From a bacterium (GTDB lineage Bacteria; Electryoneota; Electryoneia; Electryoneales; Electryoneaceae): a stretch of 64,000 nt of DNA. Under the pieces are notes generated by a model, which made no database searches, had not been told where the DNA came from, and worked only from the letters and a program-made list of their open reading frames with translations. Positions 27,534-62,601 of the stretch are shown here, piece by piece (the first letter of the stretch is position 1; every line of letters starts with the position of its first letter). A program made the translations under genes and the position numbers. The stretch spans positions 58,945 to 122,944 of the forward strand of contig JAHLLH010000008.1 of assembly GCA_020444265.1 (NCBI GenBank), written 5' to 3'.

Positions 27534-28808
27534 CTAACTCAACATCTCAAGTAAAAGATGTCGCTCGCTCGAGAAGTCAACTTCAAGGGGTGAGCCGAGG
27601 GCCTCCTTCGAGTTGTGTGTGAGCAACAACTTCTTCACCGGGAGGACCGATTCTTTCTTCGGCAGGCTTTTTACCACACCGCAAAAACCAGTGTATCGAC
27701 CACTGCTGTTGCTGCGGATTCGCACCTGGCTTCCAATGGGGAAATGCTGGATCAAGCTGGCCAAGGTGCGGACAACGTGATGATTAAAGAGGGTACCGCT
27801 GTGTTCAAGGAAAGAGGTCAGGGCGGTTACTGGTTCGACCGGTTCATTCCCGGGTCGCGTGCTCGTCTTCTCCATGAACAAGGATGTAACTGCCAAAATT
27901 TCGCTCAGGCGAAGTACCATTGGCAAATCGATCGAATCAGGGGGTAGCCCTTTGCTTTTTGTTCCCAGCGGGTAGCCTGAGCCATCCAGCCTTTCATGAT
28001 GACGAAGCAAAATGGCTTGCTCATCATCGCTGCCCGGGTAAGCGCCACGCAACAGCATCACCGTATAAGCAGGATGTTCACGCAGCATCATGCGCTCATC
28101 CTTGCTGAGTTGGTCCGCTGGGACTTCATGGAGTGGTGCGAGTAGCGAATAGCCGAGGTCGTGCGTCAGGGCGGCTGTCGCAAGCAAACGCAGTTCGCGT
28201 TCCGGAAGCTGATACTCTTCACCGATAATCAGCGAGAGGATCGCCGTATCCACCGCAAAACTACATTCTACTGCACCAAACATCCTTTCCGGGAAGGCAA
28301 GGAATAGGGGACGGTACTCTTCGACCACTTTGTCGAGGATGATTGTAGCTCGATCTTTCGCCTGGTGGAAACTGATTGGGTTGGCTCGACTTGTTGCACC
28401 ACGCCAGGCTGGATGCTCCTCGACCTGCTGCTGGATTGTTGTCAGCGAGCAATGCTTCAGTACCTGTTTATTTGGATCGGGTACATCACCTGTCAGAGAC
28501 ACCTGGATCTGGACAACTCGTCTTGCAAGATCGCGAAGAGTGTTTCCTGGAAGGGGGACACGATCCGAGGGGTCCATCAGATAAACACGGACTGTTCCTG
28601 TGTCACAGAGATGGGCGACCTGGTCGGCAGTCAGAGCAAATCCTGACGGAATCAGAAGGGTGCCGTCCTCGCTGTAAATCCCTTTACCGAGTACGTCTCC
28701 CTGACGAACGGTTTGTACGTTGGCGATTTTCATTGAGTGGAGTTCCCGCGCCCGTGCACTCGTCCCCAAGTGGGTCGTGTCCGGTGAAGTAACAGCAATC
28801 TGGTTCAA
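27534..28808 (-). CDS. HD-GYP domain protein (cyclic-di-GMP phosphodiesterase class)
   Basis: LTHDLGYSLL (HD) and ILLRHHERLDGSGYPLG (HHE..DGSGYP). The likely true start is MKIANVQTVRQGDVLG at 28733. Confidence 0.85.
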   Translation of the reverse strand: MNQIAVTSPDTTHLGTSARARELHSMKIANVQTVRQGDVLGKGIYSEDGTLLIPSGFALTADQVAHLCDTGTVRVYLMDPSDRVPLPGNTLRDLARRVVQIQVSLTGDVPDPNKQVLKHCSLTTIQQQVEEHPAWRGATSRANPISFHQAKDRATIILDKVVEEYRPLFLAFPERMFGAVECSFAVDTAILSLIIGEEYQLPERELRLLATAALTHDLGYSLLAPLHEVPADQLSKDERMMLREHPAYTVMLLRGAYPGSDDEQAILLRHHERLDGSGYPLGTKSKGLPPDSIDLPMVLRLSEILAVTSLFMEKTSTRPGNEPVEPVTALTSFLEHSGTLFNHHVVRTLASLIQHFPIGSQVRIRSNSSGRYTGFCGVVKSLPKKESVLPVKKLLLTHNSKEALGSPLEVDFSSERHLLLEMLS

Positions 28809-36424: not shown

Positions 36425-36483
36425 AGCGGGGGAAGGTTACGACCATTGCAGCCTTGACCGCAAGCTGGAATTGGTGCGGGGTC

Positions 36484-36910
36484 TTGTGTCAGGTCTCCGC
36501 TTCGCTAAAGACCGGACACAACGACTTTGGTTCAGTCAGGTCTCCCGACCTGACTGAATAACTGCCAGGTCGGGAGACCTGGCGGAACCATGTGGTCCCA
36601 GGTAGCGCGGCGGGTACATGTCATCCCGGGCTTTACTCGCCCTTGGCGAGTTGACCTGGGATCCAGCATCCGAGGGAGGTGTATGGCGAGGTGGTGAAAT
36701 CCTCGGTCCGTGGCTGGCAAGGAGGAGGAAGGAGGTGCCCCCACGGCTCGGGCGACCCCGGATTTGGCAGAGTCGCTCGTTGCAAGGGTTGGTTGCTGGA
36801 TCCCGGATCAAGTCCGGGATGACACAACTCGTCCAGTCATGGCTTAGCGGAGGGATGATGAATACTCGCGCCTCGGGCGCGAATGGTGTGTCAGACGAGG
36901 GCGTTTGACA
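36484..36910. repeat. GTCAG-stem hairpin cluster, locus C (inside a 512-nt non-coding spacer)
   Basis: Hairpins: 36484-36522 (same unit as 24310-24343); 36532-36557 TCAGTCAGGTC-tccc-GACCTGACTGA; 36565-36582 CCAGGTC-ggga-GACCTGG; 36800-36820 ATCCCGGA-tcaag-TCCGGGAT; 36867-36910 CGCGCC-tcg-GGCGCGAATGGTGTGTCAGACG... (same as 24234-24279). There is also an 11-bp inverted repeat, TGTCATCCCGG (36619-36629) and CCGGGATGACA (36814-36824). Confidence 0.8.
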
Positions 36911-36936
36911 TGACGACGAGAAACAGCTACCACTGC

Positions 36937-39201
36937 CTACTTCTCGGTCAACTCGAAAACGCAGTCCCAATCATCCGGTGGCGGATTCTCGATGCAGATA
37001 ATGCAGCGTTCGAGGTAGGTCTTGGAGGGACCATCTTCCGGGTCAATGGCGAGGGCCTGTTCGAACTTTGCTTTACCCTCGGCGAACATCCTGCTTCGGT
37101 AGAGCTCGATGCCCTCGTTGTAGAGGGGGATCACATCTCGGTGGCCGGTCAGAAGGTTGTCGAGGTCCTCGCCCATCAGCTCGTAGACTCGGACCGGCTC
37201 GCCTTTGCCTTTCACACGGAGATCGTCCAGCATACGGGTGACAAAGGTTTCGTTTACATCCGCCCAGGTCTCCGGGCCGATCATGATCGTGGTGCCGTAG
37301 GATTTGTTGGCCCCTTCGAGACGGCTGGCCAGATTGACCGCATCGCCCATCACCGTGTAATCGAAGACTTCCAGGCACCCCATATTCCCGACAATCATCG
37401 GGCCGGTGTTGATCCCTACACGGCTGGCGAGACGTGGAATGCCACGTTCTTCCCACCCCCCGCGCAGTTCCCCGAGACGACGCTGCATCTTCAGCGCTGC
37501 ACGGCATGCCCAGGTGGCATGATCCTCGAAGAAGACGGGTGCGCCCCATTCTGCCATGATCAGGTCGCCCTCGTACTTGTCGATAATACCCTCGTTATCG
37601 AGGATGATGTTCGACATTTCCGAGAGGTATTCGTTGAGCAGGCCGACCAGTTCTTCCGGGCTCATCTTTTCCGAGATGCTGGTGAAGCCGGCGACATCGG
37701 TGAAGAGGGCAGTCATCCTTCGACGTTCACCACCCAGCTTTAACATATCCGGGTTCTGGATCAGTTCGCTGACCACTTTTTGCGGGACATACTGGGCGAA
37801 CATGCCACGGATCATCGCCTTTTCACGCTGCTCGAGAATTGCATGGTAGAGAGTGGTCGCTAAATAGGCGATCACAATCGAGGTCAATGGTGCAATAAGC
37901 GCGACCCAGATCCTGTGTTCGATGAAGAGGTAGAAGACAATAATGGTCAGGACGAGACCGAGACCGAGGGTAAACAATGAGCCAGTAACCAGCTTGGTCG
38001 AGTTGTTGAGCAGGAAGACCAGGATGGTGAGGGTCAGGATCAAGAGGTATTCCCAAACCGGGGGCACGTTGTAGATGTAGGCTTCGTCGAGGATGGTCTG
38101 CAGAGCATTTGCATGAGTCTCGACGCCCGGTGTTTCAATCAGGTCCTTGCGACCGTCGGGAGAGGTATAGGAATAGAACGGGGTCCGTTTCAGGTCCTGC
38201 AGTTCAGCGGTCGAGGCGCCGAGGAAAACAATCTTGTCCCGGAACGGATTCGCACTACGCAGCTCACGGAAGGGTTCGACCGCTTCGGGCGGCAGCAACA
38301 TTTCCAGCAAGGCGAATTGCTCATCGCTCATCGTGAACCACTTCATATAGTCGGTATCATCGACAAGCAGATCGAAATCTTCGGTGTCGAGCACATGGGC
38401 GAAGCTGAAGGTGGGGAAGGTTCTGGCTGGGCCGTAGAAGTTGGTCAACATGGTTGGCTCGCCATCACTCGCCATTCGTGGAATCTCAAAGGAGCCGAAT
38501 TTGACCCCGTGGTCGGTCGGGTAAAGGCGTGCGGTGTCAGGGATATCAGCGAGTAGCTGAAGCGCCTTTACCCCGAGTGGCAGCCAGCTTGTCGAGTCAA
38601 CATGGATAAAGATCGGGTACTGACGTGTGAAGCCGTCCGGGTCTTTAATCTCGTTGACAATTCCCTTCGCGACCCCTGTATCTGAGATTGGTTTGATTGG
38701 AACCAACGCCCGTTCGATCACCTCTTCGACTTTATCATTTCGGGTGAAGCTGATTTTGGCCGCGTGAATGATCTTGTCCTTGTACGTCTCAGTCGCATCG
38801 GCGAGAGCCTGGTCCTCCGCCGGGTCGGAGGGTTCGAGGAACTGGACGTCGAATACGATCAGGCGTGCACCTGCGGCGAAGAGATTTTCGACCATCTTCG
38901 CGTAATAGGAACGTGGAAAGGGGTAGCGTTGCGGCAGTGTCGAGAAGGATTCATCATCAAGGTCGACAATGATGATGTCGCTGTGGTCCACCGATTCCGG
39001 GCCACGGATCAGAAAGCGGGCATCGTAACTTTTCAGTTCGAGGTCGTAGAGGATGCCGAGGCGCCCACCAAGCATAGAAATCGCCGCAAGCGCAGCGCTC
39101 GCAAGGATTCCAAGCCACCAGGAAACCCTTTTTTTACCCTTCGATGGACTGGCATCGTTGGGCCCTGGTTCAGCACCATTTGTGCCCGGCATGCGAGCCA
39201 C
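36937..39201 (-). CDS. CHASE2-sensor class III adenylate/guanylate cyclase (probably an adenylate cyclase)
   Basis: N-terminal TM, a periplasmic region of about 330 aa (CHASE2-like: IIIVDLDDESF...PFPRSYYAKMVENL...GARLIVFDV), and 3 TM helices. The cyclase core has RRRMTALFTDVAGFTSISE, IDKYEGDLIMAEWGAP, VGINTGPMIVGNMG and FDYTVMGDAVNLASRLE. A short TPR-like tail follows. Confidence 0.85.
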   Translation of the reverse strand: MARMPGTNGAEPGPNDASPSKGKKRVSWWLGILASAALAAISMLGGRLGILYDLELKSYDARFLIRGPESVDHSDIIIVDLDDESFSTLPQRYPFPRSYYAKMVENLFAAGARLIVFDVQFLEPSDPAEDQALADATETYKDKIIHAAKISFTRNDKVEEVIERALVPIKPISDTGVAKGIVNEIKDPDGFTRQYPIFIHVDSTSWLPLGVKALQLLADIPDTARLYPTDHGVKFGSFEIPRMASDGEPTMLTNFYGPARTFPTFSFAHVLDTEDFDLLVDDTDYMKWFTMSDEQFALLEMLLPPEAVEPFRELRSANPFRDKIVFLGASTAELQDLKRTPFYSYTSPDGRKDLIETPGVETHANALQTILDEAYIYNVPPVWEYLLILTLTILVFLLNNSTKLVTGSLFTLGLGLVLTIIVFYLFIEHRIWVALIAPLTSIVIAYLATTLYHAILEQREKAMIRGMFAQYVPQKVVSELIQNPDMLKLGGERRRMTALFTDVAGFTSISEKMSPEELVGLLNEYLSEMSNIILDNEGIIDKYEGDLIMAEWGAPVFFEDHATWACRAALKMQRRLGELRGGWEERGIPRLASRVGINTGPMIVGNMGCLEVFDYTVMGDAVNLASRLEGANKSYGTTIMIGPETWADVNETFVTRMLDDLRVKGKGEPVRVYELMGEDLDNLLTGHRDVIPLYNEGIELYRSRMFAEGKAKFEQALAIDPEDGPSKTYLERCIICIENPPPDDWDCVFELTEK

Positions 39202-39204
39202 CTG

Positions 39205-41799
39205 TTAGAATCGCACCTGGTAGGTCAGCATCGCGAGGATGTCGTCACGATCCAGCACAGGCGGCTGATCGACGGTCTGGCCGTCATTGACGATGATGTC
39301 CTCGTTGACACTGAAACGTTCACCGTTCCAGTATTCGAACTGACCATTTTCCGTATACATCGTGTAGCTGATGTCGAGCAGGATCTGGTGGTTCTTCCCG
39401 ATGTCCCAGCGGGCACCCATCAACCACTCAATGTCGCTGAAATCGACGTGCAACGAACGAATCGTGCGTTTACGAAGCTCTTCAACCTCAACAGGGTCAT
39501 AATCCGGAGATGTCGGATCGTAGGCACTCGCCGGATCAATGTGAATCACACTGTTGACACCACTCCCGAGGGTGATACGAGGGCCGAAATAGGGGACCAG
39601 CGTACGGTTAAACAGGAAGTAATCCGCACGAAGGGTGATCAGGTTAAAGCTGAGGTCCGTCAGCCCACCGATGGATGTCTGGGACGAGTTTGAGAAGTTC
39701 GCACGGGTCATCAAGGGCATGTCGTAGCGGGTGCGCACACCGAACGCCAGCATGTTGGTCGATGCTTCCCCGAGGGTGTTGTAGCTGTCCGCACGGTCCG
39801 AAGTAGTCATCGCGAAGGTCAACTGGTTGCTGGTTCCCCTGTAATAAAGATTCTGCATCAGGGAAAGCGTAATGATGTCGGTCGTGTTTTCCTTGCGCGT
39901 ATCGATTGTATCGATGATTGTCGGCTGAGATGGATCAGGAGCGTAGGTGCTGAACGTACCGTCGTTGGTGTTCAGGTTGTTGCGGTAACTGAGGTTGACA
40001 TCCGGTAAGACATCCCCGGTATACGCGTTGATCGAAGCGAACACCACATCCTGGGTATTGCGGATGTCACCCTTGCCGGTCACGTTGTCCCAGTAGTGCT
40101 CCATGCCGCCTTCGATATAGAGCCGGCTCTTGAAGAGTCGGAGACGGTCCTTGAAGTAGTAGCCCTGCTTGTCGTTGAGCAGGGTCGGGTTACCCATCGT
40201 CCGGAAAGAGCGGTTGATCAGCTTGTAGCCGGCTTGCAAGTCGTTGTTGAGGTAGCGGATACGCAAGCGGGTTTTATGGGACAAAGCATTGCCCAGGATC
40301 GATCCCACCACCTTGTTGACATCCAGACTACCCGTGGTGTCAATGCCTTCCGCCGGAAGCGGATCAAAATACTGGTTGATCCAGATAATGTTCTGGTAAT
40401 CCTTCACATCATCCAGCGCGGGTTCGGAGGTATTTTCGTTGAAGAGGGACAAGGCGACCTGGCTGGTCAGGGTGATGCGACGACGGTCGAGATACATTTC
40501 GAGGTCAGCACCTGTTACCAGGTTGTCCTTCGGGTTCTCCCCATAATCGATTGATGTGATGTCATCCTTCGCCTTCATGGTGGTAAAGCCGATCATGAAG
40601 GTGTTGGGCTTCCCGAAGGAGACACGTGCCGCACCCAGCCAACGACGGTAGGTACCGGGGGCAAAGGTGGTGTCCATGAAGGGTATGTCGTCTTCGGTTG
40701 TATCCGGTGTGATCGAAATAAGGTCAGCATCAATCGGACGGGTCAGGTTACCGTAAATCATCTGGAGTCGGGCCGCGCCGGCATTCATGTCGAGCGAGGT
40801 ACCGCGGATGCGGCGGCCCCATAGGATCAGCTCGTTGTAACGTGGCTTGATGTCACCATAGCGCAGGCGGAAGGAGGGCCAGCCTGCGGTGACCAGGTAA
40901 CGGTGCTGCGGTTGCAGGGAACCTTGTTCTTCACTGGTTAAACGACCCGAACCTGTCAGAGCGAATGAACCGGCAGAGGCGCGAATATTGAAGCTTTCAC
41001 GGAAGATGTTCTGAGCATCGCCATTGTATTTCTGGTGGCGCAACTCCGATGTGAAGTTGGCCTGCACATACTCACTGACGCGGAACGATCCTTCTCCTTC
41101 GGGCACCCAGGTAAAGCTCCAGGACCCGAGGTTTTCCATGCCTTCCGGTCCCATGTAGTCGATGTCGAGACGTTGACGGCCTTTGTTCTGCAAACGAGGG
41201 ATGACGACTGTGAGCAGCTCAGTGGAAACATCCGCCTGGTTGGTCCGGTCACGACCATTGATCCGCATCCGAATTTTTGTCACATCAATCTCACGTGCCG
41301 CCTGGTTAAAGGCGACCGCGATCAGCAAGCGACCTTCTACTTCTGTGAAGGGTGTAGGACTGATCAGGATGACCGGCTCTTCCGGCTGGCTGGAAGCCGC
41401 ACCGCGAACATTTACTTCAACCGGGGATGTGATCGGATTGTTGGCGGGGAAGGTGTAGCTCGACCCATCATCAAGAATAATTTCGATGAAATAGTCAAGT
41501 CCTTCGACGACGATGTACTGAGCTTCAATTTCCGCACTAAAATTGCCTGCAGAATAGTACATCTCCTCGAAATCGTAAACTTCCTGGTTGCGGGTCTTAA
41601 ACCACAATTTGGCTTCGAGGATGTCGGTCTGGGATACCTCACCTTCAAGGAAGGCTTCGACGGTTAGTGGCTTGCCTTCTTCAGCGAACGAAATTGGGGT
41701 GTGTACCACTCGAACGGTACCGTATTGCGCAAATGCTGAAGTGAGTGGAAACAGAAGAGCGAGACAAGCGAGAAGAACAGTCTTCCCTGCAAAGCGCAT
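39205..41799 (-). CDS. Large outer-membrane beta-barrel protein with N-terminal Ig-like modules; family unknown
   Basis: Signal peptide MRFAGKTVLLACLALLFPLTSAFAQ. About 600 aa of alternating polar/aromatic strands. The C-terminus is ...AMLTYQVRF (terminal Phe). The stop lies 3 nt before the cyclase start. Confidence 0.6.
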   Translation of the reverse strand: MRFAGKTVLLACLALLFPLTSAFAQYGTVRVVHTPISFAEEGKPLTVEAFLEGEVSQTDILEAKLWFKTRNQEVYDFEEMYYSAGNFSAEIEAQYIVVEGLDYFIEIILDDGSSYTFPANNPITSPVEVNVRGAASSQPEEPVILISPTPFTEVEGRLLIAVAFNQAAREIDVTKIRMRINGRDRTNQADVSTELLTVVIPRLQNKGRQRLDIDYMGPEGMENLGSWSFTWVPEGEGSFRVSEYVQANFTSELRHQKYNGDAQNIFRESFNIRASAGSFALTGSGRLTSEEQGSLQPQHRYLVTAGWPSFRLRYGDIKPRYNELILWGRRIRGTSLDMNAGAARLQMIYGNLTRPIDADLISITPDTTEDDIPFMDTTFAPGTYRRWLGAARVSFGKPNTFMIGFTTMKAKDDITSIDYGENPKDNLVTGADLEMYLDRRRITLTSQVALSLFNENTSEPALDDVKDYQNIIWINQYFDPLPAEGIDTTGSLDVNKVVGSILGNALSHKTRLRIRYLNNDLQAGYKLINRSFRTMGNPTLLNDKQGYYFKDRLRLFKSRLYIEGGMEHYWDNVTGKGDIRNTQDVVFASINAYTGDVLPDVNLSYRNNLNTNDGTFSTYAPDPSQPTIIDTIDTRKENTTDIITLSLMQNLYYRGTSNQLTFAMTTSDRADSYNTLGEASTNMLAFGVRTRYDMPLMTRANFSNSSQTSIGGLTDLSFNLITLRADYFLFNRTLVPYFGPRITLGSGVNSVIHIDPASAYDPTSPDYDPVEVEELRKRTIRSLHVDFSDIEWLMGARWDIGKNHQILLDISYTMYTENGQFEYWNGERFSVNEDIIVNDGQTVDQPPVLDRDDILAMLTYQVRF

Positions 41800-41965
41800 G
41801 GTATCTCCTCCACCGATGCGTTCACATCGGAACCAGCGTTAAACGAAGTCACTCAAAAAGTCAAGGGTGGCAGACGACCGGGTTACCCGATCGCCTGCCA
41901 CAAAAAGATGTATCAAAAGGTCCTGCCTGGCCCGGCCAGCCTGGATGGACCTTTACAATCCAGTA

Positions 41966-42682
41966 TTACTGATTATCCTGGTACTGGATGATGATCGTTT
42001 TCTCGTTTCCTTCATCATCGAGGAACCTGATTTCAATCGACTTCAGGTCAAACGTTTCCTCGGTGAAGTCCGGAACGTCAATATCTTCGAGGGTCACTTC
42101 TTCAATCGAACCGGATGGGTCGATGTTCGCGCCCATACCAGCGCCGACATCAACCGTTTGACCCGTTATCAGGGAGAGCATTTCAATCAATCCCTGAAGG
42201 GTCAAAACCTGTGAAGAGCCATCCTCGTTGACAATGACCCAGAATTCGGTGCCCTTGACCGATGCCACCGAGGTCGGTGTCGCAATCTGGAGGGCACCTT
42301 TCTGCTTGGTCACATCCGCGAACAACTCACCCAATTCCATGTTGACACGCTTTGAGATGCTGTAATCCTCATCGCGCTCACCGTCCACCGTGATTGCAGT
42401 GTTCGGACGGATTTTCAGTTGGGTTTTATCATCTGTGAAGACGATGGAGATGAACCCATCATTCCCGGTGCGCAATTTGTCGCCAGCGTTCAGCACGGCG
42501 CCAAAGTTGGCGCTTTTCCAGGGGGCATCACCCTTCTTCAGCTCGGCATCTCCTTTTGCAGTCAGGATCACTGCAATGGATTTGGATGCCTCTTTTTCCT
42601 CTTCTTGAGCCCACGCCGCTCCGGCCAGCAGCCCGGCAAGAAGCAAACCCAGGGTCAGGGTACGAACGAATCGCAACGACAT
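41966..42682 (-). CDS. FecR-domain periplasmic protein
   Basis: Signal peptide MSLRFVRTLTLGLLLAGLLAGAAWAQ. GDKLRTGNDGFISIVFTDDKTQLKIRPNTAITV and VASVKGTEFWV are FecR-type beta-sandwich blocks. No TM or anti-sigma domain. Confidence 0.7.
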   Translation of the reverse strand: MSLRFVRTLTLGLLLAGLLAGAAWAQEEEKEASKSIAVILTAKGDAELKKGDAPWKSANFGAVLNAGDKLRTGNDGFISIVFTDDKTQLKIRPNTAITVDGERDEDYSISKRVNMELGELFADVTKQKGALQIATPTSVASVKGTEFWVIVNEDGSSQVLTLQGLIEMLSLITGQTVDVGAGMGANIDPSGSIEEVTLEDIDVPDFTEETFDLKSIEIRFLDDEGNEKTIIIQYQDNQ

Positions 42683-42706
42683 GAGAAATCCTCCCTGAGT
42701 GCCGGA

Positions 42707-43909
42707 CTATTCTTCCAAGCCGACAGTGATGATCGTGATGTTCGGGTTGTTCAGCAGGCTCATCAGGTCCTGTTGGGTAAAGCCGCTGATACCGTCAATG
42801 GTGAGGTCTTCGTACGTGAAACCTTGAAGCTCATTCATCAGGTTCTGCATCACGTCCGAGGGAAGCATCCCGGAAAGCTGATCCAACAGCGGATCATTGC
42901 CGCCCTGGGTTGTGCCACCGCTACCTCCACCGACATTGCCACCTGTCGTTCCGCCACCTGTACCCGGATCTTCAGCCGCATAGGTGAAGCTGAAGACATT
43001 TGAGTCGAACTCACGCCCCTCACCTGGAACAACGGTATTCACGTTAAAACGGACCATCCAGTAGTAGGTGGCGCCGGGGGTCAGGCTGCGTTCCTCGCCT
43101 GCGAAGCCGGTGTAAGTGTACGAATCCAATAGTGCAGGGCTGCCCCTGAACATCGTGTTGGAAGAGTTCGCGGATGAAATGACTGTTTCACCATCTTCAC
43201 CGGGATCACCTTCCACGATGATCAGTTCAATTTCGTTCGCGTTGAGGTTACTTGAACCGGTCCAATCCCAGGTGAAAAAGATGGGGAGTGCAGTGATCTC
43301 TTCGCCCTCGTCCGGCGACTGAAGTTGGGGAGAGGAGGGATTGAAGACCTGTACCTGCTGCAACTGGATGCCGTTGGCAAGTGGGCTGCCTTTTTCGCCA
43401 CCTTCCTCGTTTGGCTCGACAGCAAAAACGGTTACTGTCAGGATGTAGACGCCACTGGAGAGGTTGCTGCCATCCAACAGGTCGAGGAAGGTCTCGAGAT
43501 CTCCATAATAGCTCTCGTCCCGCTCGCCTAGTTCAAGATTGTCCAACTCGACATTATTGTAGACACCGTTTCGACCCGGACCATTGATCCAATCACGAAG
43601 CTGGAAGTTGCTTGAGACGTAATTGACCAGCACCAATCCAGCTGTTTCAAGGCGAACCTCCAAAACCATCCAGTCATCGAGTTCATCAGGTGTTGAGTTG
43701 GTGATCTCGACTTCGAACAACTCAGGGAGTGTGCTCAGGTCAATGTCTTCGTCGCCTTGAATCGCATCGATGTCGACAATATCGCCGACAGGGAAGATCT
43801 GCGGGTTGGATGCAACAAAACGCGTTTGCACCTGGATTGCACCAACTGGAGATGCAAGTACCAAACCCAGCAGAACTGTTGCGACCCAGTAAAGGCTGCG
43901 TCGCGTCAT
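42707..43909 (-). CDS. Secreted acidic protein with a Gly/Thr-rich tract; no recognisable family
   Basis: ATG 43909 (GGAGGGG upstream) gives MTRRSLYWVATVLLGLVLASPVGAIQ. Internal tract GTGGGTTGGNVGGGSGGTTQGG. The ORF-track start 43996 adds 29 aa. Confidence 0.6.
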   Translation of the reverse strand: MTRRSLYWVATVLLGLVLASPVGAIQVQTRFVASNPQIFPVGDIVDIDAIQGDEDIDLSTLPELFEVEITNSTPDELDDWMVLEVRLETAGLVLVNYVSSNFQLRDWINGPGRNGVYNNVELDNLELGERDESYYGDLETFLDLLDGSNLSSGVYILTVTVFAVEPNEEGGEKGSPLANGIQLQQVQVFNPSSPQLQSPDEGEEITALPIFFTWDWTGSSNLNANEIELIIVEGDPGEDGETVISSANSSNTMFRGSPALLDSYTYTGFAGEERSLTPGATYYWMVRFNVNTVVPGEGREFDSNVFSFTYAAEDPGTGGGTTGGNVGGGSGGTTQGGNDPLLDQLSGMLPSDVMQNLMNELQGFTYEDLTIDGISGFTQQDLMSLLNNPNITIITVGLEE

Positions 43910-44141: not shown

Positions 44142-44669
44142 CTATTCCTCCGGGAGCGGGATGCTGCGATGAATACGCCAGGACCCATCCTCCTGCAGCT
44201 TCCAGATGGTGAGGAAGACTCCGGTGGAGTGATGCTCGATGTCCTCGTCGCCACTTGTCCAACTGTATGTGAAGTAACCGGTCTCATAGGCGTATGGATC
44301 CAGACGCCATAAATCAGAGCGCTCAAAAGAGACCTGGGCTGGTCCTAATTGTTTCATCCAGCGCTTCATGGCCTCGTGGATCTGTTTTGAACCAAACGTG
44401 ATAGAACCGTGTTCCCCAAGTAATGCACCATCTCTGTCGAAGAGAGCAGCCGCCTTTTCAGCGTCCTGGGTCCTGAACGCATGCACCCATCGTGCGTTCA
44501 TCACGTCAATATCTTCTGTCGCTTCCTCAACAGCACGGCTGAGAAGGCTGGGGTCAAGGTCAGTCTTCGATGAATCGGTGCCCGATTTCAACCCAGTCTG
44601 TGCCTGGGCGGGGACGAGGATCGAGATCATCAGAAGGACGAACAAACTCAAATGAACCTTGTGTCGCAT
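44142..44669 (-). CDS. Secreted SnoaL-like/DUF4440 (NTF2-fold) protein
   Basis: ATG 44669 (AGGAGA upstream) gives the signal peptide MRHKVHLSLFVLLMISILVPAQAQ. ARWVHAFRTQDAEKAAALFDRDGALLG...FLTIWKLQEDGSWRIHRS is typical of DUF4440. Confidence 0.55.
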   Translation of the reverse strand: MRHKVHLSLFVLLMISILVPAQAQTGLKSGTDSSKTDLDPSLLSRAVEEATEDIDVMNARWVHAFRTQDAEKAAALFDRDGALLGEHGSITFGSKQIHEAMKRWMKQLGPAQVSFERSDLWRLDPYAYETGYFTYSWTSGDEDIEHHSTGVFLTIWKLQEDGSWRIHRSIPLPEE

Positions 44670-44824
44670 CGGGGTCTCCTGATAGGCCTTGGGTATCGTG
44701 CAAACTCTACAGGCCGGATGCAAGCCCCAGATGAGCGGAAGCTTTCACCAAAGCCCGAAGAGAACTCCCGGTGTGCATCGACACATGTTTGCCGCCCGGC
44801 AAGCCGAGCCGTTAGCTTGCGTGC

Positions 44825-46768
44825 ATGATGATTCGAACTGAGAGTAAACGATTCCTTCCCGTGATTCTGGGAAGCTTGATCCTTACTGCCGGGCTTGCGA
44901 CTGCGGCCTTCTCACAGACCAGCACGGTCCGTGAACCTGAAACTACGCCATCGATCGAGGAACAGCGCGAACAACAGCGAGAAGCGTTCCGTCGGGAACG
45001 ACTGCGACGGAACCGGATGTCGACAGCTGCACGACAGCTGGAGACCCGCGGAAACAATGAATCTGCTCTCAAACTCTACCGCGACCTGTACGAACTCGAC
45101 CCGAACCGTCATGATTACTTCGAAGGGATGATCCGCAACCTGGTGGCGTTAACCCGCTTCGACGAAGCAGTATCGTTGCTGGAAGAACAAATCCAAAATC
45201 CCACCGGCCTACGGAATGAGGCGAACCTCTACGCCCAGCTCGGATCGGTATATCATCAGGCGGGGCAGGACGATCAGGCCAAACTCACCTGGCAAAAAGC
45301 GATCCAGACGACCCCCGGATCGACGATTGGTTACCAGACCGTCGCATCGTCCATGATCCGTCTCCGCTTACTCGACAGGGCAGAGGAGGTGTTGCGCAGA
45401 GGACGCTCTGAGCTTGGCGATTCGACACTTTTCTCCGTCAACCTCGCCACCCTGTTGCAGGCAAGGATGGAGTGGGAAGGGGCGGCCAGAGAATACCTGA
45501 CCTCGTTGCAGACCTCTCAAAATCGAGTGTCCTACATCGAACGTGCCATTGCGGGTTTTCCAGACACTCCCGAATCCCGTGAGGCAGTCGAAGCTGTTCT
45601 GCGTGATGAGATTGAACGGGTCGAAGATGTTGGTGACCCCTGGGAAGGGTATGGCAATGAATTACTCCAGCTCCTGGCCGGCCACTACACCTCTAATGCG
45701 GACTATGACAAAGCGCTGGATGTAATCGTGCCGATCGATGAAGCCTCCCCGAATCCCGGTTATCGCTTACTCGATTTTGCGGGGGAAGCATCGCGTGAAG
45801 GTTTCCCGACAGTTGCCCGGCATGCGCTCGAACTGGCAGCGGAACGGTTTGAGGATCCGGAGGGGACGGCTGTCGCGAACCTGACGCTGGCAAGGATTGC
45901 ACACGGGGAGGGGGATGGTCCGCTGGCGGATTCCCTGTTGACGACCCTGTTGGAAAAACCTGTTTCTCCTCGCGTGGAACGGGCTGCTCGCTACCAGCGT
46001 GGCATCGCTCGTCTTGACCTGCTGAATGATCCCGCTGGTGCGGCGAAGGATTTCCAATCGCTGCTGGTCGTGCCCGATCCCTCAACCAACGAACGACTAC
46101 GCTACCTGCTGGCTTTCAGCCTTGCCAGTATGGATAGCCTCGAGATGGCGCTTGGGCAACTGGGCGAAGTAGGAGAGCAAATCGCCTCCAAGACCCAGCC
46201 CCCGCCCCTGCCGGGCCGTGAGGATGCATGGGTGCTCGAGGAAGCTGATGCGGCTTTTCTCGAGGCACGCATTGCCTTGTGGCTGGGACGTCCTGCAACA
46301 GCGGCGGAACGGATCGAAGAGATTTTTGCGCCGCCGACCGGGTCGAACTCGGAAAACGAGGCCCTCGATCTATTGCACATCGTCTCTACCACGCAGGACA
46401 GTCTTGCATTGATTGATTTCGGTAAAGCGGATCGTGCCGCCTTCCAGGGGGCCGATGCCATCGCCATCGCGATCTATGACACTCTCGCGAATGCTGGCGA
46501 TACGTACATCAACAAGGAATCCGCCTGGCGAGCCGCACGGATCCGTTTCGAATCCACGCGGGATAGTTCGCTTATTCACTATGCCGGTCTCTATCCCGAT
46601 GCTCCCCATGCCGAGGATGCCCTCTTCCAGACGGCACTGGCGTGGCGGGATGCGGGACGAACGAACGAAGCACAGTCCACCTTCGAGGAATTGCTGATCC
46701 GTTACCCGGATGGCATCCTCGCAGCCGAAGCACGGCTGTTGCTCGATGAGATTACGCTTCTTCCCTGA
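44825..46768 (+). CDS. Secreted TPR-repeat protein
   Basis: Signal peptide, then recurring 34-residue A/L/Y-rich helical pairs (ALKLYRDLYELDPN, LYAQLGSVYHQAGQDDQAKLTWQKAIQ, AEDALFQTALAWRDAGRTNEAQSTFEELLIRYPD). Confidence 0.7.
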   Translation: MMIRTESKRFLPVILGSLILTAGLATAAFSQTSTVREPETTPSIEEQREQQREAFRRERLRRNRMSTAARQLETRGNNESALKLYRDLYELDPNRHDYFEGMIRNLVALTRFDEAVSLLEEQIQNPTGLRNEANLYAQLGSVYHQAGQDDQAKLTWQKAIQTTPGSTIGYQTVASSMIRLRLLDRAEEVLRRGRSELGDSTLFSVNLATLLQARMEWEGAAREYLTSLQTSQNRVSYIERAIAGFPDTPESREAVEAVLRDEIERVEDVGDPWEGYGNELLQLLAGHYTSNADYDKALDVIVPIDEASPNPGYRLLDFAGEASREGFPTVARHALELAAERFEDPEGTAVANLTLARIAHGEGDGPLADSLLTTLLEKPVSPRVERAARYQRGIARLDLLNDPAGAAKDFQSLLVVPDPSTNERLRYLLAFSLASMDSLEMALGQLGEVGEQIASKTQPPPLPGREDAWVLEEADAAFLEARIALWLGRPATAAERIEEIFAPPTGSNSENEALDLLHIVSTTQDSLALIDFGKADRAAFQGADAIAIAIYDTLANAGDTYINKESAWRAARIRFESTRDSSLIHYAGLYPDAPHAEDALFQTALAWRDAGRTNEAQSTFEELLIRYPDGILAAEARLLLDEITLLP

Positions 46769-52187: not shown

Positions 52188-52251
52188 ATGGATTGTCTTT
52201 CCCGTTGTTTCTCAATACCTTCTCTGAATCGTGAATCAACTCGAGTGTGCC

Positions 52252-52941
52252 ATGACCCATCAGGATGTGTTGCGGCGATTGCAGGAGGGGAATCGACGGT
52301 TTGTCGCGGATTCGGCGATTTACCCACGGCTCACCAGCGATCGACGTGAGGAGCTTCGCAGCCAGGGGCAGGACCCGATAGCGACAGTGATTGCGTGCAG
52401 CGACAGCCGTGTCCCGGTTGAGCACATCTTCGACAAGGGGATGGGGGATCTCTTCACTATACGTGTGGCGGGCAATATTGCTGGAAGCACGCAAATCGGG
52501 ACGGTGGAGTTCAGCCTCTCTGCTCTCGGGGTGCCCTTGATTGTGGTTCTCGGCCATGACGATTGCGGTGCCGTCAAGGCTTCGGTCGACGAGGTAGAGG
52601 CGAGCGGGCACCTGCTGCGTCTAATCCGCGTCATCCATCCCGTCACCGAGATGGTCCGTCATGAGTACCCCAATCTCAGTCGCGAGGAGCTGATCCCGCG
52701 TGTGATCAACGAGAATGTCTTCCTGACGATCGAGAGCTTGATAACGGGTAGCAACATGATCGCCGAAGCAGTGAGGAAGAAAAAGGTGCGAATTGTCGGG
52801 GCGGTGTTCGACATTGCGAGTGGAAAGGTGACCTGGATGGGCGATCATCCCGATCAACGTGCTTTCCTCAAACAGAAAAAGCTGCCCCTGAGGTATCGAA
52901 TCGGACGGCATTCATCGGTTGAAGAAGATATTGTGGAGTAG
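52252..52941 (+). CDS. Beta-class carbonic anhydrase
   Basis: IACSDSRVPVEHIFD and VLGHDDCGAVKA (Cys-Asp-Arg ... His-x-x-Cys zinc ligands). A GTG at 52231 is an alternative start. Confidence 0.88.
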   Translation: MTHQDVLRRLQEGNRRFVADSAIYPRLTSDRREELRSQGQDPIATVIACSDSRVPVEHIFDKGMGDLFTIRVAGNIAGSTQIGTVEFSLSALGVPLIVVLGHDDCGAVKASVDEVEASGHLLRLIRVIHPVTEMVRHEYPNLSREELIPRVINENVFLTIESLITGSNMIAEAVRKKKVRIVGAVFDIASGKVTWMGDHPDQRAFLKQKKLPLRYRIGRHSSVEEDIVE

Positions 52942-61944: not shown

Positions 61945-62601
61945 ATGCCACGACAAGCGAGACTCGTTCTGCCGAATGTCCCCCACCATGTAACGCAGCG
62001 TGGTGTGCGGAAAATGCAAACCTTTTTCTCGTCTGATGATTACGAACTCTACCTCAAACTCCTCTCCATTTTTACCAGGAAGGCGGAGGTCTCCGTTCTC
62101 GCATGGTGCTTGATGCCGAATCATGTTCATTTATTGTTGGTTCCAACGTCTGAAAAAGGACTGCGTGCAGCGCTGGGACCTTTGCACCGGACTTACTCTT
62201 CCGAAGTGAACAAACGTGAGACATGGACCGGTCATCTGTGGCAAGCTCGATTTGCTTCCTTCCCAACGGATCCTTATCACACCACCGCTGCGGCACGTTA
62301 CATCGAGCTGAATCCAGTTCGTGCCGGATTGGTTTCCGTGCCCGGAGCATATCGATGGAGCAGCGCGAGGGCACATCTGACCATGGAGCCGGATGGGGTT
62401 ACAGATCTAGGAGCGATGAGTTCCATCGCTGATGATTGGAATGGCTTGCTTGCTAGCGGGTTGGACGATCAGACTTTAGAGTCCATTAGGCAGCACGAGA
62501 CGAACAACTTCCCGCTCGGTGCAGAGCATTTCGTGCAAGCACTCGAGCAGGAATTCGATCAGAAACTTCGACCGGGAAAGCGTGGCCGACGGTGGAAATG
62601 A
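61945..62601 (+). CDS. REP-associated tyrosine transposase (RAYT; IS200/IS605 TnpA-like HUH Y1 enzyme)
   Basis: 218 aa. LAWCLMPNHVHLLLVP (HUH motif) and AARYIELNPVRAGLV...YRWSS (catalytic Tyr helix). Confidence 0.88.
   Translation: MPRQARLVLPNVPHHVTQRGVRKMQTFFSSDDYELYLKLLSIFTRKAEVSVLAWCLMPNHVHLLLVPTSEKGLRAALGPLHRTYSSEVNKRETWTGHLWQARFASFPTDPYHTTAAARYIELNPVRAGLVSVPGAYRWSSARAHLTMEPDGVTDLGAMSSIADDWNGLLASGLDDQTLESIRQHETNNFPLGAEHFVQALEQEFDQKLRPGKRGRRWK

Follow-up and report, generated by a model that had tools for sequence, protein, structure and literature searches.

In Sinorhizobium meliloti, NsrA, a predicted outer-membrane barrel, is needed for the perception of a plant or uL2 signal and for the synthesis of cyclic AMP (cAMP) via the CHASE2 cyclases CyaK and CyaD1/D2 (PMC7529298, PMC13001267). 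The system answers an exogenous protein signal (PMC7529298), and CyaD1 lacking its CHASE2 domain synthesizes cAMP constitutively (PMC5498481). FecR-domain proteins have furthermore been found in the company of CHASE2 receptors in several other organisms. The 'BiofilmReg' operon of Burkholderia encodes a LysM-FecR protein and a CHASE2 histidine kinase, a gene cluster of the Campylobacterota combines a CHASE2 adenylate cyclase with a phosphodiesterase, a FecR-domain outer-membrane protein and a tetratricopeptide repeat (TPR) protein, and in magnetotactic bacteria MtxA is followed by a CHASE2 adenylate cyclase, while the FecR-domain protein smc02177 of S. meliloti has been linked to CHASE2 receptors in the literature. 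The route from a barrel via FecR to a CHASE2 cyclase and cAMP is already established by genetics in one organism, and bioinformatic work has noted it in several. CHASE2 domains are common in bacterial sensors; the literature gives no ligand for any of them, and the only hint at their function to date is that the CHASE2 cyclases of S. meliloti depend genetically on NsrA. Here we describe a cluster of four genes (36937..43909, minus strand) in a 64,000-nucleotide stretch of contig JAHLLH010000008.1 (positions 58,945 to 122,944; GenBank assembly GCA_020444265.1) from a bacterium of the Electryoneota, hereafter the window, which encode a secreted acidic protein, a FecR-domain protein, a large predicted outer-membrane barrel and a CHASE2 cyclase. 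A preliminary description of this locus had assumed the idea of a FecR-CHASE2 relay to be novel, which is not the case given the linkage already noted in Burkholderia, the Campylobacterota, magnetotactic bacteria and rhizobia. We consider it likely that the four genes constitute an envelope-spanning sensory module with a cAMP output, in which a cue perceived by the barrel is passed via the FecR-domain protein to CHASE2.

Conservation of the four-gene order

The four open reading frames (ORFs) are all present and consecutive on the minus strand, as the preliminary description had placed them. In the direction of transcription they encode a secreted acidic protein of 400 amino acids (gene (i), 42707..43909), a predicted soluble periplasmic FecR-domain protein of 238 amino acids (gene (ii), 41966..42682), a predicted outer-membrane barrel protein of 864 amino acids (gene (iii), 39205..41799) and a predicted inner-membrane CHASE2 receptor adenylate cyclase of 754 amino acids (gene (iv), 36937..39201). 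The gaps between them measure 24 nt, 166 nt and 3-12 nt, respectively, so that gene (i) is tightly coupled to (ii) and gene (iii) to (iv). Relatives of the barrel gene, found by exact look-up and by scanning the GTDB species genomes, gave 25 distinct loci including the window, hosted by Ca. Electryonea, KSB1, Calditrichota and unclassified metagenome-assembled genomes (MAGs), and these were mapped by tblastn and profile hidden Markov models (HMMs). A FecR gene lies immediately upstream of the barrel gene in 23 of the 24 evaluable loci, the exception being L009, and a CHASE2 cyclase gene immediately downstream in 19/24 (the exceptions are L004, L007, L013, L015 and L028), while a homologue of gene (i), recognized by its profile HMM, immediately precedes the FecR gene in all 21 evaluable loci. 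The order FecR, barrel, cyclase is kept down to 23% amino acid identity of the barrel and in loci with wholly different flanks. The FecR-barrel pair is the invariant core of the module, and gene (i), whose orthologues hold the same place in related loci at 31-43% identity, is its fourth core component.

A second sample approached the module from the cyclase. A metagenome scan seeded by an alignment of the CHASE2 domain, with HMM scoring, yielded 80 loci at 26-58% identity, which represent the nearest relatives of the window's CHASE2 domain and not all CHASE2 proteins. A barrel-family gene is located directly upstream of the cyclase gene in 50/66 evaluable loci, and both a barrel and a FecR gene are found upstream in 38/48, while a FecR-domain gene occurs somewhere in the locus in 45/48. 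A homologue of gene (i) accompanies 25 of the 33 loci having both barrel and FecR genes. The FecR-domain proteins in cyclase-side loci without the barrel family are long, 324-1227 amino acids. In L099, from the window's own CHASE2 clade, the 1227-amino acid protein encoded upstream of the CHASE2 cyclase consists of a FecR domain, TPRs and a C-terminal region of ~680 amino acids. Linkage of the FecR, barrel and CHASE2 genes, which had been set beforehand as the test of the proposal, is thus recovered from the barrel side as well as from the cyclase side. This arrangement of four genes is far beyond chance, as dozens of divergent loci repeat it. Across several phyla of the FCB group the four genes are passed on together with their order unchanged.

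These counts bear directly on the view that the genes are chance neighbours with unrelated functions, which local synteny has brought together by accident. Housekeeping genes on the flanks (ffh, rpsP, rimM, trmD and those for oxaloacetate decarboxylase) are indeed also syntenic in the closest relatives, but the four-gene order persists where the flanks are wholly different and where protein identity has dropped to 23-30%, and the components are fused into one protein in other lineages. As such, this explanation is effectively refuted and is left with a negligible probability.

A single Ca. Electryonea clarkiae MAG harbors two barrel paralogues. At one of them (L009, 10714-14370) the barrel gene is followed by an ORF of 1218 codons encoding two CHASE2 domains and one cyclase domain, with neither a FecR gene nor gene (i), while at the other (L013) gene (i), the FecR gene and the barrel gene are present and the cyclase gene is absent. 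The two loci seem to complement each other, unless the double-CHASE2 ORF has arisen from a frameshift or from an error of assembly.

The four predicted proteins

The FecR domain of gene (ii) spans amino acids 68-166 (nt 42185..42481, minus strand; PF04773; E-value: 1.6e-14; 54.5 bits against a cut-off of 24). A hydropathy scan detects a sole hydrophobic segment, the N-terminal signal peptide, and neither a lipobox nor a transmembrane segment nor an anti-sigma domain was found by Pfam search and hydropathy scan, which agrees with the earlier view of this protein as a FecR-type protein with a signal peptide and no transmembrane or anti-sigma part. Its likeness in NCBIfam is to the leptospiral proteins LipL45/Lsa33.

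The gene (iv) product contains a periplasmic CHASE2 domain at amino acids 43-395 (nt 38017..39075, minus strand; PF05226; E-value: 8e-46; 157.1 bits against a cut-off of 26.3) and a class IIIb catalytic domain at amino acids 495-669 (nt 37195..37719, minus strand; Pfam Guanylate_cyc; E-value: 3e-21). One transmembrane helix precedes CHASE2 and approximately three follow it, the hydrophobic segments covering amino acids 26-51 and 379-452 on either side, after which come the catalytic domain and a short TPR-like C-terminal tail. The sensor, membrane helices and class III core of the preliminary description were thereby recovered by Pfam and the transmembrane scan. The start of the gene is ambiguous, being either GTG 39201, which gives the longest ORF and lies 3 nt past the barrel stop codon, or ATG 39192, 12 nt past it, which is the start in the gene call on an identical public contig (L115).

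The best solved relatives of the cyclase are CyaB of Pseudomonas aeruginosa (3r5g; E-value: 2e-34) and Cya2 of Synechocystis. Lys542 in the IDKYEGD motif aligns with the Lys of CyaB and with the Glu of the guanylate cyclase Cya2, while Thr616 of 'DYT616' aligns with the 'DYT' of CyaB at the second specificity position. In the classification of Linder & Schultz, Thr instead of Asp at this second position is said to mark subclass IIIb. Furthermore, D502, D546, N623 and R627 align with the two metal-binding Asp residues and the transition-state Asn and Arg of CyaB. Since this catalytic set and the Lys/Thr pair (D502, K542, D546, T616, N623 and R627) are identical in 18/18 cyclases linked to the barrel family, the assignment as a class IIIb adenylate cyclase with a predicted intact active site, which had initially been made by eye from the same Lys and Thr residues, is confirmed by sequence. 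Class IIIb cyclases often respond to bicarbonate. A β-carbonic anhydrase gene is located elsewhere in the window (52231-52941, plus strand), next to the oxaloacetate decarboxylase genes.

The barrel gene is preceded by a good Shine-Dalgarno site upstream of its ATG. Its 864-amino acid product carries a signal peptide and no other hydrophobic segment by hydropathy scan, and it has no match in Pfam or NCBIfam. An AlphaFold2 model built from 17 homologues (mean predicted local distance difference test score, pLDDT, of 79.5) places two periplasmic immunoglobulin (Ig)-like modules at amino acids 30-232 (nt 41104..41712, minus strand), in the form of beta-sandwiches at 30-132 and 143-232, ahead of a barrel of ~26 strands at amino acids 243-864 (nt 39208..41073, minus strand), in which the DSSP string counts 26 strands of at least 8 residues between positions 243 and 863. 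Long loops (224 residues, with 41 D/E against 17 K/R) strictly alternate with turns of 2-7 residues, the Ig-like modules are found on the turn side, and the C-terminus reads ...YQVRF, with Y860 and F864 invariant in the family. The modelled protein has a canonical outer-membrane topology, the domain placement and any view of what the lumen may hold being read from the DSSP string of the model. The structure prediction agrees with the earlier account of a signal peptide, two Ig-like modules and a barrel. The family profile over residues 20-118 matches the Ig-like domain of the Porphyromonas peptidylarginine deiminase PPAD (E-value: 1e-5). The first Ig-like module (profile positions ~20-130) also repeats 16-20 times in giant proteins of 3000-4000 amino acids (P0047, P0048, P0077, P0125 and P0146), and is a mobile repeat domain that likewise has no Pfam model.

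The known classes of large outer-membrane barrels were compared in turn. No match to the Plug or TonB_dep_Rec families was obtained in Pfam at E ≤ 0.1 and none to STN, and Ig-like modules followed by ~26 strands differ from the 22 strands of a TonB-dependent transporter or transducer. The sequence 'GTVRVVH' near the N-terminus, although similar to a TonB box, is the first conserved strand of an Ig-like module. Similarly, no POTRA, Bac_surface_Ag or ShlB match points to an Omp85 protein of the BamA, TamA or FhaC type, which has 16 strands. As it has ~26 strands and lacks a plug, STN and POTRA domains, the protein is neither a TonB-dependent transducer nor a BamA/TamA-type protein nor a simple porin, the latter two being identities that would have spoken against the initial proposal. 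Foldseek ranks the 26-strand MtrB first (TMt 0.52; 8% identity), a value at the level of generic barrels only, and TonB-dependent transporters, ushers and LptD follow at TM-scores of 0.2-0.39. An exhaustive profile search recovered 614 cluster representatives at E ≤ 1e-30, mostly full length and of 780-950 amino acids, where a word-indexed search had found 19 relatives only, and tblastn against 72,556 plasmids returned nothing. On the strength of the 614 representatives, this very large barrel, which has no specific known relative, belongs to a large undescribed family.

A longer version of the gene (i) ORF, extending to 43996, is possible. The start is assigned to ATG 43909 because a GGAGG Shine-Dalgarno site lies upstream of it and orthologues share this start. 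The protein has a signal peptide as its sole hydrophobic segment, no Cys, no lipobox and 61 D/E against 12 K/R. A Gly-rich tract of variable composition, a disordered linker at amino acids 316-337 (nt 42899..42964, minus strand), precedes a conserved C-terminal domain of ~60 amino acids. No family match was found in Pfam or NCBIfam, and together with its composition this bears out the initial portrayal of a signal peptide, an acidic body and a Gly-rich tract in a protein of no recognizable family. The AlphaFold2 model, of medium quality (pLDDT 65.9, from a 9-sequence alignment), consists of two beta-sandwich domains, the second of them confident, the disordered linker and a small helical C-terminal domain, and its Foldseek matches are generic FN3/Ig tandems only. 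In the window, a DUF4440/SnoaL-like gene with a signal peptide (44142-44723, minus strand) is inserted between gene (i) and a divergently transcribed TPR gene; this insertion occurs in the window only, and gene (i) and the TPR gene stand back to back in related loci.

The resemblances of the individual proteins could also be read differently, with the barrel, FecR and gene (i) products primarily forming a surface-display, secretion or transport machine and the cyclase being an accessory monitor. The barrel might export or anchor one of the soluble proteins at the surface, or import a substrate. A partner protein sits inside each of the known 26-strand barrels, MtrB and LptD, the former being the closest match by fold; LipL45 and Lsa33, the named proteins nearest to the FecR protein, are leptospiral surface proteins; gene (i) resembles an adhesin-type tandem FN3 protein; and the FecR-barrel pairs without an adjacent cyclase (5/24) are found next to genes for type IX secretion system cargo and C25 peptidases in L004 and L007. 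However, a cyclase gene follows the barrel gene directly and in close coupling in 19/24 and 50/66 loci, the fused form NsrA is by its genetics a signal-perception protein rather than a transporter (PMC7529298), FecR domains act in signalling elsewhere, and the barrel is devoid of a plug, a TonB box and POTRA or usher-like domains. We therefore regard a display or transport function as improbable, and favour a sensory role for the four proteins.

Intergenic structure and neighbouring genes

A GC-rich hairpin of 16 bp followed by a T-run is located in the 166-nt gap between the FecR and barrel genes (41867..41901, minus strand; terminator scan; dG -31.3 kcal/mol; z -7.4). In many of the closer relatives (L001, L003, L004, L011, L012, L013 and L015) this gap likewise contains hairpins, which are not homologous to one another and of which several have T-runs in the manner of classical terminators, while KSB1-type loci, in which the gap is 20-40 nt, have no such hairpin. 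The element in the window looks like an intrinsic terminator or attenuator, and because of it the first two and the last two genes may differ in expression level, the hairpin perhaps setting their ratio. It is probably an attenuating or partial terminator which, as we infer from its position and form, would let the soluble proteins outnumber the membrane proteins. The Rfam scan identified no riboswitch and no known RNA family, and a promoter-consensus scan gave 4 sites against 4.5 expected. The 512-nt spacer between the cyclase stop codon and an LpxL-like gene (36425-36936) is also unusually structured (z -9.5) and includes a palindrome (36537-36581), an 18-bp perfect inverted repeat with CAGGTCTCCCGACCTG arms, which may be an operon terminator or a protein-binding palindrome. 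Neither the hairpin nor the palindrome is a repeat element, both being single-copy.

The divergently transcribed gene upstream of the module (44825..46768, plus strand) encodes a TPR protein of 647 amino acids with a signal peptide, identified through the Pfam TPR families. Homologues occupy the same divergent position in L001, L003, L008, L012, L014 and L015. A place for the TPR protein as a fifth core component was discarded, since none of the 23 more distant module loci that could be evaluated has its gene; at most it is a clade-specific part, possibly an accessory.

Downstream, the module adjoins genes for lipid A and heptose biosynthesis (LpxL-like and RfaE) in the window and its closest relatives. 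This neighbourhood would fit a module built of the same parts and with the same cAMP output that monitors an internal input, the integrity of the outer membrane or envelope, in the way that RcsF-OmpA-IgaA serves the Rcs phosphorelay. The barrel 'loops' with the highest conservation (SEEQGSLQPQH and KPRYNELILWGRR) are furthermore too conserved for exposed ligand sites and may fold into the lumen, and CHASE2 domains have no known ligand. However, the lipopolysaccharide (LPS) genes keep this synteny within the closest clade alone (the window, L001, L008 and L014) and are absent elsewhere, so that their adjacency probably reflects shared ancestry and was not retained as a functional link, and the S. 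meliloti analogue answers an exogenous protein signal (PMC7529298). An internal input appears quite unlikely on this evidence, more so than a display or transport function, and a cue at or outside the outer membrane is the preferred reading.

No sigma or anti-sigma gene is present within ~15 kb of the module, as judged by the lack of Pfam sigma-70 r2/r4 matches, in accord with the preliminary description; the same stretch likewise gave no match to the STN, Plug or TonB_dep_Rec families. In a sub-clade comprising L026, L027, L060, L064 and L069, a metallo-β-lactamase (MBL)-fold hydrolase (Lactamase_B_2 / Apyc1-like), a 174-amino acid cyclic nucleotide monophosphate (cNMP)-binding protein and a GAF-SpoIIE phosphatase are encoded near the module, and plausibly serve there in the turnover of cAMP and as its effectors. 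They were ruled out as regular output partners, being restricted to this one sub-clade. Among other genes of the window are an HD_5 (HD-GYP-like) phosphohydrolase gene ~8 kb from the module (27534-28808, minus strand) and an IS200-type Y1 transposase gene (61945-62601, plus strand).

The proposed relay and its comparison with known systems

We propose that the barrel, with its net-acidic surface loops, would perceive a cue at or outside the outer membrane, and that its Ig-like modules and the FecR protein, probably together with the FN3-like product of gene (i), would bridge the periplasm to CHASE2. This bridging would relieve or impose the control that CHASE2 exerts on the cytoplasmic cyclase dimer and so change the level of cAMP, which would act on effectors mostly encoded elsewhere. 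The relay from the outer membrane through the periplasm to the inner membrane that the preliminary description put forward is supported, with protein contacts and a direction of signal flow that are those of the model.

Several observations weigh against this proposal. The FecR-barrel pair occurs without an adjacent cyclase gene in 5/24 loci (L004, L007, L013, L015 and L028) so that the pair can be present, or function, with no cyclase nearby. The predicted terminator-like hairpin leaves a single shared transcript of the four genes unproven. There is no cAMP effector, cNMP-binding or obvious phosphodiesterase gene near the module in the window, and MBL-fold hydrolase, cNMP-binding and GAF-SpoIIE genes stand alongside the module in only 5/53 loci. 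The window barrel shows no detectable homology to the NsrA barrel (hhalign probability 0.1 for profiles of 17 and 149 sequences against NsrA or an NsrA alignment; no significant hmmsearch match), so that the NsrA analogy rests on architecture and gene order, and the two barrels are either analogous or too diverged to be recognized. Finally, the signal and the protein contacts of the relay are ones that we infer.

In a variant of the proposal, the FecR and/or FN3-like protein would sit within the barrel lumen or thread through it, in the manner of MtrA-MtrB, LptE-LptD and RcsF-OmpA, making it a surface sensor whose periplasmic end directly gates CHASE2. We hold this arrangement to be rather unlikely. 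If true, it would represent a widespread new class of trans-envelope receptor with a cAMP output and would provide the first mechanistic handle on CHASE2 sensing, through a protein partner rather than a small ligand.

What is new in the present locus is the split architecture, the unannotated barrel family with its Ig-like modules, the acidic FN3-like fourth component, the recognition of NsrA as a fused form and the breadth of occurrence in the FCB group. The fusion in NsrA, the split four-gene form and its conservation across FCB-group phyla together speak for a FecR-domain protein, held by an outer-membrane barrel, as the true 'ligand' of these CHASE2 domains. In the split form the parts can be expressed one by one for work on the FecR-CHASE2 and FecR-barrel contacts, the barrel and gene (i) products are two new protein families worth profile models, and FecR-based cell-surface signalling is extended from sigma factors to a cyclic-nucleotide output.

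In predicted strand number and size, and in the obligatory pairing of a barrel with a small secreted protein, the module resembles MtrB-MtrA, LptD-LptE and RcsF-OmpA/C/F. It differs from the MtrB and LptD systems in that identity is 8-10% at TM-scores of 0.2-0.5 and no cytochrome or LPS-transport partners are encoded in the window module. With FecA-FecR-FecI it shares a FecR-family periplasmic domain combined with a large outer-membrane barrel and the logic of an outside-to-inside relay. However, the window FecR protein lacks the cytoplasmic anti-sigma domain and the transmembrane segment, there is no nearby extracytoplasmic function (ECF) sigma factor gene, the barrel has no plug, STN or TonB-dependent signature and ~26 rather than 22 strands, and the predicted output would be a second messenger in place of a sigma factor.

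The Burkholderia, Campylobacterota and magnetotactic pairs have in common with the window a secreted FecR-domain protein encoded beside a CHASE2 receptor. The Campylobacterota cluster, and likewise an Ensifer locus, also resemble the L026/L027/L060/L069 sub-clade in the association of TPR and MBL-fold or phosphodiesterase genes with the cyclase. The Burkholderia, Campylobacterota and magnetotactic systems differ from the window in lacking the barrel family and gene (i), and the output in Burkholderia is a histidine kinase. The Ensifer locus (PDNC004; L034) has separate TPR and FecR genes and an MBL-fold hydrolase gene after that of the CHASE2 cyclase, while FecR-TPR-barrel-type fusions upstream of a CHASE2 cyclase also occur in Methylocystis and Ensifer adhaerens. 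On a plasmid of Niveispirillum cyanobacteriorum (L032, 3212-6196), the protein encoded upstream of the CHASE2 cyclase is a lipoprotein-like TPR-CHAT (caspase-like protease) protein of 994 amino acids, and not a FecR or barrel protein.

The closest counterpart is NsrA-CyaK, the properties of NsrA being taken from later publications and from the pSymB sequence itself. On pSymB, nsrA (1200 amino acids) is immediately upstream of cyaK, their stop and start codons overlapping, and Pfam resolves NsrA into a FecR domain (amino acids 66-160) and TPRs (378-587), followed by the published barrel region (600-1200). Divergently from nsrA-cyaK, a 181-amino acid PycTM (Pycsar effector transmembrane) protein is encoded (L030, 4366-4911), perhaps a cyclic-nucleotide-responsive membrane effector tied to that locus. 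From its signal peptide on, the window FecR protein aligns with NsrA residues 1-180 (28% identity over 187 amino acids; BLASTP E-value: 6e-15), and the window cyclase is ~30% identical to CyaK over the CHASE2 and catalytic domains. In both systems a barrel gene is immediately upstream of, and coupled to, the gene for a CHASE2 adenylate cyclase, the FecR domains are homologous, the barrel of ~600 amino acids has acidic external loops, Lys occupies the first specificity position and TPR elements are associated. They differ in that FecR, TPR and barrel form one 1200-amino acid polypeptide in S. meliloti and are encoded by separate genes in the window, where the barrel has two Ig-like N-terminal modules and a conserved acidic FN3-like secreted protein is added. 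CyaK, with K/S at its specificity positions, has Ser where the window cyclase has Thr, and the window host is an uncultured FCB-group bacterium and not a rhizobium. By virtue of the nsrA-cyaK gene order and the alignment of the FecR protein to the NsrA fusion, the window module is the counterpart of NsrA-CyaK in split form, with a fourth component added and a barrel that has no detectable homology to that of NsrA.

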